Source of the DNA: a virus
Direction: 5' to 3' (one strand)
DNA: 64,000 nt
IMG/VR virus record: IMGVR_UViG_3300034121_000527
Coordinates: 1-64,000 of that record
Position numbers and translations under genes: made by a program. The notes beneath the pieces are model-generated. The model made no database searches. It worked only from the letters and a program-made list of their open reading frames with translations, and had not been told where the DNA came from. The first letter of the stretch is position 1. Each line of letters starts with the position of its first letter. Below are positions 14,981-33,664 of this stretch, piece by piece.

Positions 14981-15018
14981 AGTGCCTCCACCCTTATGGG
15001 TGGGGGTGCTTTTTTTTT
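14981..15018 (+). terminator. Intrinsic terminator
   Basis: AGTGCCTCCACCC-ttat-GGGTGGGGGTGCT stem plus T9. Confidence 0.85.
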
Positions 15019-15149: not shown

Positions 15150-15222
15150 TGTGACATATGTAACAGTGATGTGACAATTGTCATACCTACCCTAAATACC
15201 TCATAATGTGGCAAATGTCACT
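15150..15222. promoter_or_regulatory. Three CRP-like palindromic operator sites
   Basis: TGTGACATATGTAACA (15150), TGTGACAATTGTCATA (15170), TGTGGCAAATGTCACT (15207). Confidence 0.55.
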
Positions 15223-15530: not shown

Positions 15531-15914
15531 ATGTCAGTAATGGAAAGGGAACACGCCCAATATACGGCGTTGTATCCAACATCAGATATCCATGACGCTT
15601 GGGTGTGGCACACCCTGAGTGGTTCACACTACTCATATCATGGATTCAATGTGTGGCAACACCATGATAATGGTGAACTGGAAGTTGTGTTACGTAATGT
15701 AGCAGAATACTGGTTCCCTGAAATAGCGGGCTTTCGCCCGTTCTTCATGGCTGAGTCACCCACCAAAGGAAGATCATACTTCCGTAGTAACTTGGTGACC
15801 TCTTATTCATCTCCTTTATGGCAGATGAAGCGGTCATCTCGGGGCGATGTGCAAACCTGGTTGGTTCTTGATGACCAAGGTTGGGGCACAAGAGAAATGA
15901 TCAGAGCCCGCTGA
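15531..15914 (+). CDS. Hypothetical protein
   Basis: GAGGAGG SD before ATG 15531. Confidence 0.7.
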   Translation: MSVMEREHAQYTALYPTSDIHDAWVWHTLSGSHYSYHGFNVWQHHDNGELEVVLRNVAEYWFPEIAGFRPFFMAESPTKGRSYFRSNLVTSYSSPLWQMKRSSRGDVQTWLVLDDQGWGTREMIRAR

Positions 15915-15920
15915 TCAAAC

Positions 15921-15997
15921 GCCACCATAGCTCAGTTGGTTAGAGCAAGGCACTCATAATGCCTGGGTCACAGGTTCAAGTCCTGTTGGTGGCACCA
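15921..15997 (+). tRNA. tRNA with CAU anticodon (Met elongator or Ile2)
   Basis: GCCACCA/TGGTGGC acceptor, AGGCA-CTCATAA-TGCCT, GGTTCAAGTCC, encoded CCA. Confidence 0.92.
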
Positions 15998-16028: not shown

Positions 16029-16391
16029 ATGACCAAAGAAAAACTGATAGTTAATCTTTGCCTTGATGACATTATCAAGCCTGACCACGCTCTGAGGATA
16101 CTTGCCTCAGAGATTGGACTCAATGATGATGAAACCGAAGCATTCATCATCAAAATTGCCAGTCATTTCAAGGATAGAACTGGTAAGTCCAGATGGACAG
16201 ACAGCGAAGACGATCTCGTTGTCTCCATGTATGGGGAAGGTTATCCCCCCAAAGATATAGCTAGTAGATTGGGGCGAACTGTTGCCTCGGTAAATCAGCG
16301 CATTTTTATTTTGCGCAAGTGTGGGTACAACCTACCTAGTAAACGGCCTGATGCAATGGGTAACTCCTACGCTAAGAGGTGGGTGTCATGA
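16029..16391 (+). CDS. Myb/SANT-like helix-turn-helix protein
   Basis: RWTDSEDDLV...IASRLGRTVASVNQR. Confidence 0.7.
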   Translation: MTKEKLIVNLCLDDIIKPDHALRILASEIGLNDDETEAFIIKIASHFKDRTGKSRWTDSEDDLVVSMYGEGYPPKDIASRLGRTVASVNQRIFILRKCGYNLPSKRPDAMGNSYAKRWVS

Positions 16392-16615
16392 ACCCTTTAG
16401 ATAACTTGGGCGACAAGCTCTACCGACGACTCACTAACATTGAGTCAATTGAGGTAGAGGAATATATCATCAAGACGTACGGCCAAAAGGTTGGCATGCG
16501 AATTATTCGCTTAGCCGACAACATTGGTTGGAGTGATGGTGAAGAAACAATTACAGCCGTTGCCGCTTTCAACCGTGCGGTGCAGTATTACCGCAGACAA
16601 CGGCTTGCTATCTAG
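16388..16615 (+). CDS. Hypothetical protein
   Basis: ATGA overlap with previous gene. Confidence 0.6.
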   Translation: MNPLDNLGDKLYRRLTNIESIEVEEYIIKTYGQKVGMRIIRLADNIGWSDGEETITAVAAFNRAVQYYRRQRLAI

Positions 16616-17035
16616 GCCCCTGATGTGTGGGCTAGTAGATGACACTGTGCTATCTGTGGATAGTAGAAGAAATTTACGAAAGCGTTGGGTAAGGCAGTTT
16701 TGGCTTAGATGCCGGGTTCGCCCTTTAGCAGCATCGCTGTCTTACCCCCTAATACATCCCCAGGAAGAAGCGGCTGGGTATCAAGTGAGCTGATGGGCGA
16801 ATGTGTAAGCCCTAGTATCCCGAGTACCTCATCGGGCAAATTACACTACGAGGATATGGTCTGCTCGACCTTAACTGGCAAAAGCAACTATAGGAACTTA
16901 CATTGGCCTATAGCCAAGAGAAAATGTTCGTAATTAGAAAGCCAACGTAACGGCTTTATCTCGGAATACTGCTTCCGTCATCACGCCAGTAAGTTTTTTG
17001 TATATTTTTTACTTGCCAACTTTAAAAAATATACA
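16612..17035 (+). ncRNA. Putative large structured ncRNA
   Basis: ~420 nt with more than 10 helices, including nested and long-range stems, directly upstream of tRNA-Arg. Confidence 0.55.
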
Positions 17036-17037
17036 CT

Positions 17038-17113
17038 GCACCAGTAGCTCAATGGATAGAGCAACAGACTTCTAATCTGTAGGTTGTAGGTTCGAGACCT
17101 ACCTGGTGCGCCA
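17038..17113 (+). tRNA. tRNA-Arg (anticodon UCU)
   Basis: GCACCAG/CTGGTGC acceptor, ACAGA-CTTCTAA-TCTGT, GGTTCGAGACC, encoded CCA. Confidence 0.93.
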
Positions 17114-17202
17114 AGCCAAGGGCTACGGTCATGTCATTCTTTTGGGGCTTTAAGAATAACCTGCGTTTAATTCATGCGTTAAAAGGTTATTCGCCCTTGG
17201 CT
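17114..17202 (+). ncRNA. Structured element immediately after tRNA-Arg
   Basis: AGCCAAGGGC/GCCCTTGGCT (10 bp) stacked on GAATAACCT/AGGTTATTC (9 bp). Confidence 0.4.
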
Positions 17203-17235
17203 ACATATCTAAAACAACAAACGAAAGGAACAGCA

Positions 17236-17697
17236 ATGACCATATCATTAGTTATAGATCCAATTGGGACAATAAGAAAGATTGATTTAGACGGGTATGA
17301 ACCACTGTCTAACGCTGTGGGTGGACTCATTGAGTCAGTCCCAGCAAATCTTGCGGTCACCATTTGGTGCAACGAAGAAGGCAAGATGTTAGGTCAAGAT
17401 TTTAATCTTGTTGCCACAGACTTGTGGGAAGTGTTTGACGAATACGGCTGTGTAGCAGCTGGGGATGTACTGGTTGGTCCAATTGTTATTCAAGGACCAG
17501 CTGATGAGGAAGGGGAATGTACAGATGTTCCCGACTGGTTGCTCATGCACCTGGGCTTTAGTATGCAAGCACCAGCCCCCAATAGCGGAAAGACCGTGTG
17601 TGTCAACTGCCATGGAACTGGTTCTTTAATGAGAAACGGAATCCATGACGGGGCAGAATGCCCCAAGTGTTACGGATGGGGTAGCACTTATGAATAA
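17236..17697 (+). CDS. DUF3846-like protein with C-terminal CxxCxGxG zinc finger
   Basis: L..AVGG.IE...IWCNEEGK...N..AT; CVNCHGTG/CPKCYGWG; AAAGGA SD. Confidence 0.75.
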   Translation: MTISLVIDPIGTIRKIDLDGYEPLSNAVGGLIESVPANLAVTIWCNEEGKMLGQDFNLVATDLWEVFDEYGCVAAGDVLVGPIVIQGPADEEGECTDVPDWLLMHLGFSMQAPAPNSGKTVCVNCHGTGSLMRNGIHDGAECPKCYGWGSTYE

Positions 17698-32236: not shown

Positions 32237-33664
32237 TTAGCTTAAATCAATTACATCTTGGATAAATTGGTCTGTTTGATTTGGGCCCAATCCTCCACCA
32301 GGAAGCTGCCGAGCAGTTTCTCCGGCTTTGCTACCAAACAATCTAGAAAGTACCCCTGCGTTACCTCTTGCTTCTACTTCAATGCGCATAAGATCACGGG
32401 TGTCGGAGATGTTTTTAAACTTGTCAATTAGAGAGAATAACCTATCCATTTCTGATGACAAGGCGGGGTCAAGGCCCTGGCCCTCAAGCTCTTCGGCAAA
32501 TCTTGCAAACAAAACTCGACTGGCTTGCATCTCAATCATTGCCTGCAGAACAGCATTTAACTGATCCTTAGATCGTATTTCTACAGGTAACTTAAACCCA
32601 CAATCTGAATGTTCCTTGAATGCAGGACAACGTGATGCAAGATAGCAACTATCACATTGTCGCAAAGGTCCACTTTGATACCTAATGACAGGGGTTTCTG
32701 TAGGGGCGATTTCTATGTGTTCTCCCTGCTCAGAGCCACTTTGTGTACCCATTGAGATGATATGTTCTATGCCCATAACCGGTAGCAATAGACGCTCACT
32801 TTCGTGCCGCTTCTCTAGGTGGGAGATAGCAATATTACCCCCCTTGGAAACCGGTTTATCTACATTAGGTGACATAGGGGGTATATCAACTATATCCCCC
32901 TCTTCTACCTCTCCAAACTCAGACTCATCATCAGTAACTTGAGGGTCATAGCCCAAAAATGTGGACTGTTCCCAAGCCTTCCAAGACTTGATTGCAAGTG
33001 ACCCAACCGCTGTCACATTGTCTTCTAAGATTGCTTCGTAATCAATACCTAATCTTAAAATGTCCGCTCTGTGCTTCTTGCGAGAAGATTCTTTCTGCTG
33101 CGCAGGGTATCTATGGAGACCATGACCATCCCATACTTGGGTCTCACCATAGCGTATGGATGAGGTCCAAGATCCAACTACAACAGCTTCCCAAGGGAGT
33201 GCTTGGATAACGTCAGGTTTACTTGTTAAACCATAAAGCTTTGCTCCCCAACGCTGTGAGAGTGACCGGATACGCGGAAGTGTTTTAGAGTTTATGGCCT
33301 TGTCTGAGATAGCAGCTCTACCATAACGTTGGCATAACCATGCCAGTCTTTCTAAATCGTCGTCATCTGACCATACCGGGACGTACTTATCTCCCAACCA
33401 TTCCCCATCCATATCAGGACGCCCAATAACAACAGATAAGGAGTCGGCGTGGTCTCTTACAAAGGTTTCATACTTATTGAGGTCCTCATCCCCCTCTGAT
33501 GTATACACCAGAATTTCAGCAGAAGCAAACACCTCTTCAGGGTTAAACTCCTTACGTTTTGGGATGGGCAAGTGAGTAATGTTCACAGCTACTCTAGTTA
33601 TTTCATTAGATATGAGCAGGTTTCTGTGGGTGCCTTTTTCGGCACCTCCAAAGAATATGTGCAT
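32237..33664 (-). CDS. Hypothetical protein: possible degenerate TGT/DpdA-like N-terminus plus Cys4 cluster
   Basis: IFFGG.E start; L.GL...LPW.....SW...RYG; CDSC...CP...C; ORF certain, function tentative. Confidence 0.55.
   Translation of the reverse strand: MHIFFGGAEKGTHRNLLISNEITRVAVNITHLPIPKRKEFNPEEVFASAEILVYTSEGDEDLNKYETFVRDHADSLSVVIGRPDMDGEWLGDKYVPVWSDDDDLERLAWLCQRYGRAAISDKAINSKTLPRIRSLSQRWGAKLYGLTSKPDVIQALPWEAVVVGSWTSSIRYGETQVWDGHGLHRYPAQQKESSRKKHRADILRLGIDYEAILEDNVTAVGSLAIKSWKAWEQSTFLGYDPQVTDDESEFGEVEEGDIVDIPPMSPNVDKPVSKGGNIAISHLEKRHESERLLLPVMGIEHIISMGTQSGSEQGEHIEIAPTETPVIRYQSGPLRQCDSCYLASRCPAFKEHSDCGFKLPVEIRSKDQLNAVLQAMIEMQASRVLFARFAEELEGQGLDPALSSEMDRLFSLIDKFKNISDTRDLMRIEVEARGNAGVLSRLFGSKAGETARQLPGGGLGPNQTDQFIQDVIDLS

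Follow-up and report, generated by a model that had tools for sequence, protein, structure and literature searches.

The window analysed here is the first 64 kb of a 93,972-bp IMG/VR virus record with a CheckV completeness of 100%. It belongs to a tailed phage whose genes include baseplate and tail-fibre genes, a family A DNA polymerase, and two SNF2-type helicases, and which also carries a DpdA-like tRNA-guanine-transglycosylase homologue and three tRNAs. Its nearest cultured relatives reach at most 31% amino-acid identity, in a helicase. The window also encodes, at 32240-33664 on the - strand, a 475-aa queuine tRNA-ribosyltransferase homologue (PHROG 887, 6.8e-38), a protein that in phages usually points to a DNA-modification pathway of the DpdA type, based on 7-deazaguanine.

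The region of interest lies in a rightward arm that begins after a terminator (14989-15008) and a promoter-like site (15178-15207). The arm is laid out as follows:

15921-15997: tRNA-Met, ~0.6 kb upstream of the RNA region and followed by a gene for a 120-aa helix-turn-helix (HTH) protein
16388-16615 (+): 75-aa ORF of no family
16613-17037 (+): gap of 420 nt, the RNA region
17038-17113 (+): tRNA-Arg, anticodon TCT (ARAGORN and Rfam tRNA, 73.7 bits)
17236-17697 (+): DUF3846 gene with a CxxC zinc-ribbon-like tail (Pfam PF12957, 2.9e-15)

The 75-aa ORF has 90-93% amino-acid identity in relatives and is swapped for a different ORF in one of them, L016, which retains the RNA. The DUF3846 gene stands directly after the tRNA in those relatives whose 3' side was inspected. 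No reverse transcriptase, nuclease, or transposase gene was seen adjoining the RNA region, and neither a sigma-70-like promoter nor an intrinsic terminator was found within 16612-17037, the nearest promoter-like site being the one at the start of the arm. Two small features flank this stretch. A 7-bp hairpin (TGATCAG/CTGATCA, 15898-15917) overlaps the stop codon of the ORF upstream of tRNA-Met and ends 3 nt before that tRNA, a hairpin-then-tRNA layout like that of the terminal hairpin (H7, below) and tRNA-Arg. On the other side, the window has a ~95-nt insertion between tRNA-Arg and the DUF3846 gene (17114-17210), where relatives have ~25 nt; it holds nested inverted repeats, GCCAAGGGC (17115-17123) with GCCCTTGGC (17193-17201) and GAATAACCT (17154-17162) with AGGTTATTC (17184-17192).

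The original prediction took the gap for a large structured RNA beside a tRNA, possibly of a new class. Protein- and DNA-pattern searches of IMG/VR and JGI metagenomes recovered the region in eight distinct sequences, the window itself counted (the others are L027, L013, L014, L015, L017, L016, and L025), with 73-97% identity. All eight belong to one clade of uncultured phages of about 87-94 kb, and in every one the RNA ends 2 nt before tRNA-Arg(UCU). The window has ORFs of 89 and 74 codons in the region, and the prediction had singled out the 16524 and 16709 ORFs as places where a conserved coding signal might appear. None did. From one homologue to the next, the open frames shift in position, reading frame, and strand; most indels have lengths not divisible by three; and the variable columns are spread over the codon phases as 68/68/62, which is no codon periodicity. 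These two ORFs are thus chance frames, and 16613-17037 (+) is, on this comparison, non-coding.

Folding of the single sequence is modestly better than chance (z -2.0 on the + strand, -2.6 on the - strand). Because this energy signal is weak, we built the case for structure on comparison. An all-against-all scan of alignment columns, keeping stacks that pair in at least seven of the eight sequences, gave as its top helices the terminal hairpin, GGGTAAG/CTTACCC, CGGAA/TTCCG, TACTG/CAGTA, GATGTG/TACATC, and CCTC/GAGG, so that all three pseudoknots described below were recovered by the unbiased scan itself. The resulting model of 72 pairs, pseudoknots included, was counted on an alignment of the family (A3). 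In it, 98.4% of cells are paired, as against 37.6-49.0% when partners are slid by 1-3 columns. Seventeen pairs are changed on both sides, as against 8.7±1.8 in 500 shuffles (none of which reached 17) and 1-5 in the slid controls; the compensatory changes for which the prediction had asked are therefore clear. The model helices hold 26 G-U cells and 2 A-C cells, an imbalance indicating that the folded strand is the + strand transcript. With no more than eight sequences, which fall in about three clades and have recombined with one another, many of the compensatory cells trace to few events, and the counts carry no significance of the R-scape type. Three helices (H0, P2, and Hv) lie in poorly aligned stretches and were checked sequence by sequence; they occupy the same place in all or nearly all members, and their sequences differ. 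Taken together, the alignment indicates that about 16 helices are kept by compensatory change, three of them pseudoknots, each of which carries such changes. The region thus shows the general marks of a structured noncoding RNA (ncRNA), namely compensatory pairs, G-U strand asymmetry, and the lack of a coding signal. From 5' to 3', the parts are:

16615-16633 (+): H0, first hairpin, GGCCC/GGGCT around a 9-nt loop; it begins at the upstream ORF's stop codon
16622-16627 (+): PK-A 5' strand, GATGTG in the H0 loop
16635-16677 (+): P2, GTAGAT (16635-16640)/ATTTAC (16672-16677), around a variable insert, which the window has as a hairpin, CTATC/GATAG (16650-16654/16659-16663)
16687-16747 (+): H2, GGGTAAGGCAG/CTGTCTTACCC (16687-16697/16737-16747), 11 pairs, enclosing H3
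16714-16723 (+): H3, GGG-TTCG-CCC (16714-16716/16721-16723)
16753-16758 (+): PK-A 3' strand, TACATC, part of the linker that leads from H2 to the core, 130 nt downstream of its partner
16759-16870 (+): conserved core of ~110 nt, 68% of columns invariant across the eight sequences versus 12-47% elsewhere
16759-16763/16774-16778 (+): Hc1, CCCAG/CTGGG, followed by an invariant joining strand, AUCAAGU..GCUGAUGGGC
16803-16808/16841-16846 (+): Hc2, GTGTAA/TTACAC, enclosing Hc3
16819-16823/16832-16836 (+): Hc3, CCCGA/TCGGG
16827-16830 with 16850-16853 (+): PK-B, CCTC in the Hc3 loop with GAGG beyond the enclosing Hc2
16858-16861/16867-16870 (+): Hc4, GGTC/GACC
16871-16935 (+): variable region, holding hairpin Hv between two conserved single strands (AACUGGC; UUAG)
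16936-17035 (+): 3' domain, comprising the elements that follow
16938-16943/16952-16957 (+): H5, AAAGCC/GGCTTT
16962-16966/16973-16977 (+): H6, CGGAA/TTCCG
16967-16971 with 16987-16991 (+): PK-C, TACTG in the H6 loop with CAGTA
16994-16999 (+): U-tract
16999-17011/17023-17035 (+): H7, AT-rich terminal hairpin of 12-13 bp, then CU and the tRNA

In the 5' part, the H0 hairpin is in place in all eight sequences with varying stems (GGCCC, TTGAGCCT, TTGGGCCA, TTAGGC...). PK-A forms six pairs, with 100% of cells paired; U-A/C-G and G-C/A-U swaps split the sequences 4:4, and there is a G-U/A-U change in addition. P2 keeps its register in all eight (GTAGAT/ATTTAC, GTAGA/TCTAC, GTAGAG/TTCTAC, GTAGG/TCTAT, TAGGTGGA/TTCACCTA), around an insert of about 15 to 65 nt. 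H2 was found where it had been predicted, with three pairs changed on both sides, and H3 within it likewise, its GGG/CCC becoming AUA/UAU in three sequences. A further predicted helix, GATGC/GCATC, exists but is lineage-specific: the segment is deleted in three of the eight sequences.

All the predicted core helices were borne out, Hc2 with one pair changed on both sides, Hc3 inside it, and Hc4. An overlap of CGAG/CTCG with GGTC/GACC had been read as a possible pseudoknot or switch; comparison resolves it as a pseudoknot, in the form GAGG/CCTC (PK-B), with two compensatory pairs. Past the core, the predicted hairpin CTATAGG/CCTATAG (16888-16894/16907-16913) keeps its position, and its stem is almost wholly replaced in relatives; across the members, Hv is a 7-10-bp hairpin with a 12-18-nt loop, always in the same place and with unrelated stem sequences. 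In the 3' domain, the predicted H5, H6, and H7 all hold up, with one, three, and three pairs changed on both sides, respectively. PK-C adds two more such pairs, UACUG/CAGUA becoming UGUUG/CAACA in L015 and L025. The predicted structure failed in its long-range junction helix, CTTAACTGGC/GCCAGTAAG (16870/16985). Just 76% of its cells pair, without a single compensatory change, and L015, L025, and L017 carry substitutions that disrupt it. Its 3' strand pairs instead with the H6 loop, in PK-C, where the disruptive substitutions of L015 and L025 (CAGUA to CAACA) are answered exactly by UACUG to UGUUG. What stands is a folded ncRNA of ~420 nt with most of the helices first proposed.

The eight-sequence alignment gave no pairing between the 3' domain and the core. 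Other long-range candidates were tried and rejected. A closing helix GATGAC/GTCATC, in which only one side of any pair changes, is broken in L017 and would overlap P2; another, AGAUGA/UUAUCU, rests on one compensatory event, is also broken in L017, and clashes with P2 and H5. A pair proposed by RNAalifold between GTAG and CTGC at the tRNA start is invariant throughout and hence uninformative. A MALAT1-like triple helix formed by the U-tract and H7 is ruled out by strand geometry.

The family is a mosaic, and its members are recombinants of each other, as the alignment shows for L027, L017, and L025. L027 is 97% identical to the window, yet its H5 hairpin is of another clade's type. In L017, the H2 domain is 97% identical to the window, and H0 and both PK-A strands are of the other type; that the two strands stay matched across a recombined H2 middle further supports PK-A. 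L017 and L025 share a ~30-nt insert inside P2.

A covariance model of the core (R1) found a single copy apiece in three near-complete genomes (G000, G003, and G004) and none in two more distant phage relatives (G001 and G002). It scores 132-152 bits on every family member and matches nothing elsewhere. DNA-pattern scans of IMG/VR and JGI metagenomes recovered only this one small family; seven further metagenome matches and eight in IMG/VR are chance hits in unrelated DNA, the latter not confirmed by R1. Among 185,579 prokaryote genomes, the pattern scan gave five chance matches, none confirmed by R1, and consequently no host or prophage lead. In blastn searches of the region, cultured phages matched the tRNA alone and plasmids gave no match. 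Within the collections searched, the family is narrow and so far purely viral. One by-product of the scans was an identical 170-nt stretch with a TAGAGAACC...GGTTTTATCTC hairpin in four unrelated-looking viral contigs (L032, L034, L036, and L039), which is a chance match of the H5 pattern and unrelated to the core.

We compared the window and four homologues with Rfam 15, at the gathering score and at E<=10, and obtained only the tRNA and an antisense tRNA look-alike. The Rfam comparison that had been proposed for GOLLD, ROOL, tmRNA, RNase P, and group I introns thus gave no match at E<=10. The GOLLD covariance model (RF01998), which covers the conserved 3' half, was unmatched at E<=10, as was the ROOL model (RF03087), in the window and the four homologues. 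For tmRNA, which joins a tRNA-like domain made from its two ends to a tag reading frame, neither ARAGORN nor Rfam gave a candidate, and the adjoining tRNA-Arg is a complete, ordinary tRNA. The bacterial, archaeal, and other RNase P RNA models, whose hallmark is the P4 pseudoknot with CR-I and CR-V, found no match at E<=10. There is no Intron_gpI match either; the region sits between an ORF stop codon and an intact tRNA, and it ends in ...ACACU, which does not suit a group I intron. A riboswitch or attenuator should have an expression platform, and no terminator-like site was found in 16612-17037, where H7 is followed by CU and the tRNA with no U-tract. Apparent likenesses of the core to CR-I/CR-V of RNase P, P7/P3/P8 of group I introns, and a tmRNA tag all failed on inspection or against the Rfam models.

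Membership in ROOL and in GOLLD was thus tested and not found, so the window RNA would be a new family of the same kind. ROOL is about 580 nt long; the window RNA, at ~420 nt, is shorter, occurs in one small clade only, and matches ROOL in neither sequence nor structure. GOLLD is often longer than 800 nt, its conserved part is its 3' region, and it too has no match to the window RNA, whose family is much narrower than either. The resemblance is one of setting and build. ROOL and GOLLD are phage and prophage RNAs of unknown function with several pseudoknots, often near tRNA islands; ROOL is large and multi-pseudoknotted, often lies beside tRNA genes, and has no associated protein gene, and GOLLD lies near or contains tRNAs and combines a conserved with a variable part (PMC12286853). 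The window RNA shares the location typical of GOLLD, being in a phage record, 2 nt upstream of tRNA-Arg and 0.6 kb past tRNA-Met. A further trait of ROOL and GOLLD is self-assembly into RNA-only multimers (nanocages). The best reading of the comparison is that the window RNA represents an undescribed family of large, ornate phage RNAs beside tRNAs, with GOLLD and ROOL as its models. The prediction of a large structured RNA, possibly a new class, is in this respect upheld by the lack of an Rfam match, the lack of coding, and the covariation.

Our preferred explanation, to which we give a probability of about 60%, is that 16613-17037 (+) encodes a compact ncRNA of ~420 nt, of an undescribed family, which is processed from a longer transcript and acts in trans. 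It would be transcribed together with tRNA-Met and small ORFs, as part of the rightward early transcript. Cleavage by RNase P at the 5' end of the tRNA probably makes the 3' end of the RNA, ...ACACU, two nt after H7. The spacing of 2 nt to tRNA-Arg, constant in all eight sequences, fits such 3'-end formation, and hairpin-protected RNase P ends would also fit the tRNA-Met hairpin, which stops 3 nt short of its own tRNA. H7 would guard the 3' end from 3' exonucleases, and the 5' end would lie at or near H0. By analogy with ROOL and GOLLD, the released RNA may work as a folded particle in trans, with the invariant core as a binding surface or an active site.

There are precedents for parts of this scheme. 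For example, species 1 and 2 of phage T4 (rnaC and rnaD) are stable RNAs of about 120-140 nt, of unknown function, which are co-transcribed with the phage tRNAs and excised by tRNA-processing enzymes. They are shorter than the window RNA and unrelated to it in sequence. In eukaryotes, RNase P cutting before the tRNA-like mascRNA makes the 3' end of the long noncoding RNA MALAT1, which is guarded by a terminal U/A-rich structure. However, the window RNA is followed by a true tRNA and its terminal structure is a plain hairpin, so the likeness is one of mechanism only.

Another explanation, which we consider unlikely but worth serious attention, is that the element acts in cis, as a leader or 3' UTR. 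It could tune processing, stability, or read-through of the tRNA-Arg and DUF3846 operon, or stabilise the upstream mRNA, as a riboswitch-like or processing element of a polycistronic transcript and not as a free RNA. The region does sit within an operon, where it has neither its own promoter nor its own terminator, the fixed tRNA distance and invariant core could mark a ligand or protein site, and the hairpin-then-tRNA layout recurs at tRNA-Met. However, the element has no expression platform: H7, which no U-tract follows, cannot serve as a terminator, and with the tRNA standing before the next ORF there is no sequestered ribosome-binding site. An element of 420 nt with three pseudoknots is also far larger than known leaders, and no Rfam riboswitch matched. 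A little less probable again is a mosaic of at least two independent RNAs, a 5' module (16613-16870, with PK-A and PK-B) and a pseudoknotted pre-tRNA leader (16936-17035). No covarying pair links these two parts, a hypervariable hairpin separates them, and the H5 of L027, which is of another clade's type, shows modular recombination. Against such independence, each of the eight sequences has both parts, similarly spaced and in an unchanged order, and the H5 pattern, searched in 2.9 million viral contigs, gave elsewhere only chance matches that lack the rest.

It is very unlikely that the RNA is a ribozyme, self-cleaving or group-I-like, with the invariant core as its active site. The core is nearly invariant and pseudoknotted, and some cleavage must make the 5' end, but no Rfam ribozyme model matched even at E<=10, the element interrupts no gene and lies next to an intact tRNA, and there is no G before the tRNA for a group I 3' splice site. 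We give almost no credence to the idea that this is not an RNA at all and that the stretch is a small protein gene or a DNA-level site, such as an origin or packaging site. The window ORFs are what could suggest a gene, but they are unconserved and lack codon periodicity, and compensatory changes with a 26:2 ratio of G-U to A-C are expected of a single-stranded + transcript, not of duplex DNA.

A more specific version ties the RNA to the tRNA itself, and we regard it as improbable, if somewhat less so than a ribozyme. Here, a ROOL/GOLLD-like self-assembling or T-box-like particle would bind, cage, or shield tRNA-Arg(UCU), or be delivered with it. Recognition might involve two elements: an invariant UAGA (16935-16938), complementary to UCUA of the anticodon loop, and UGGC (16876-16879, in seven of the eight sequences), complementary to the GCCA end, though for each such 4-nt complementarity ~0.6 is expected by chance in the unpaired conserved nucleotides. 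L017 has no UGGC, though its tRNA has the same discriminator base. Like the T-box (RF00230), the window RNA has a structure by which a tRNA might in principle be read; it differs in having no Rfam match, the two elements in reverse order, and no terminator or antiterminator. If the tie to the tRNA were true, the RNA could protect the phage's AGA decoder against anticodon nucleases of the host, or time its release.

To our knowledge, few large RNAs with intricate folds act without an obvious protein partner. The preferred reading, a free ncRNA acting in trans, would bring to this niche beside tRNAs a further family, smaller (~420 nt) than ROOL and GOLLD and unrelated to them, whose core is nearly invariant and whose three pseudoknots are backed by covariation. 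It would lend weight to the view that ornate RNAs tied to phage tRNA genes have evolved repeatedly, and the RNA is of a size that suits probing and cryo-EM. In a more distant relative (IMGVR_UViG_3300021093_000062, L011:245-1022), the ~780 nt upstream of tRNA-Arg(TCT) is also ORF-poor. This stretch has no Rfam match, no similarity to the window RNA, and no counterpart in cultured phages, and the 583 nt adjoining the tRNA (L011:440-1022) fold well, with a z of -3.1; it may be a different large RNA in the same slot.
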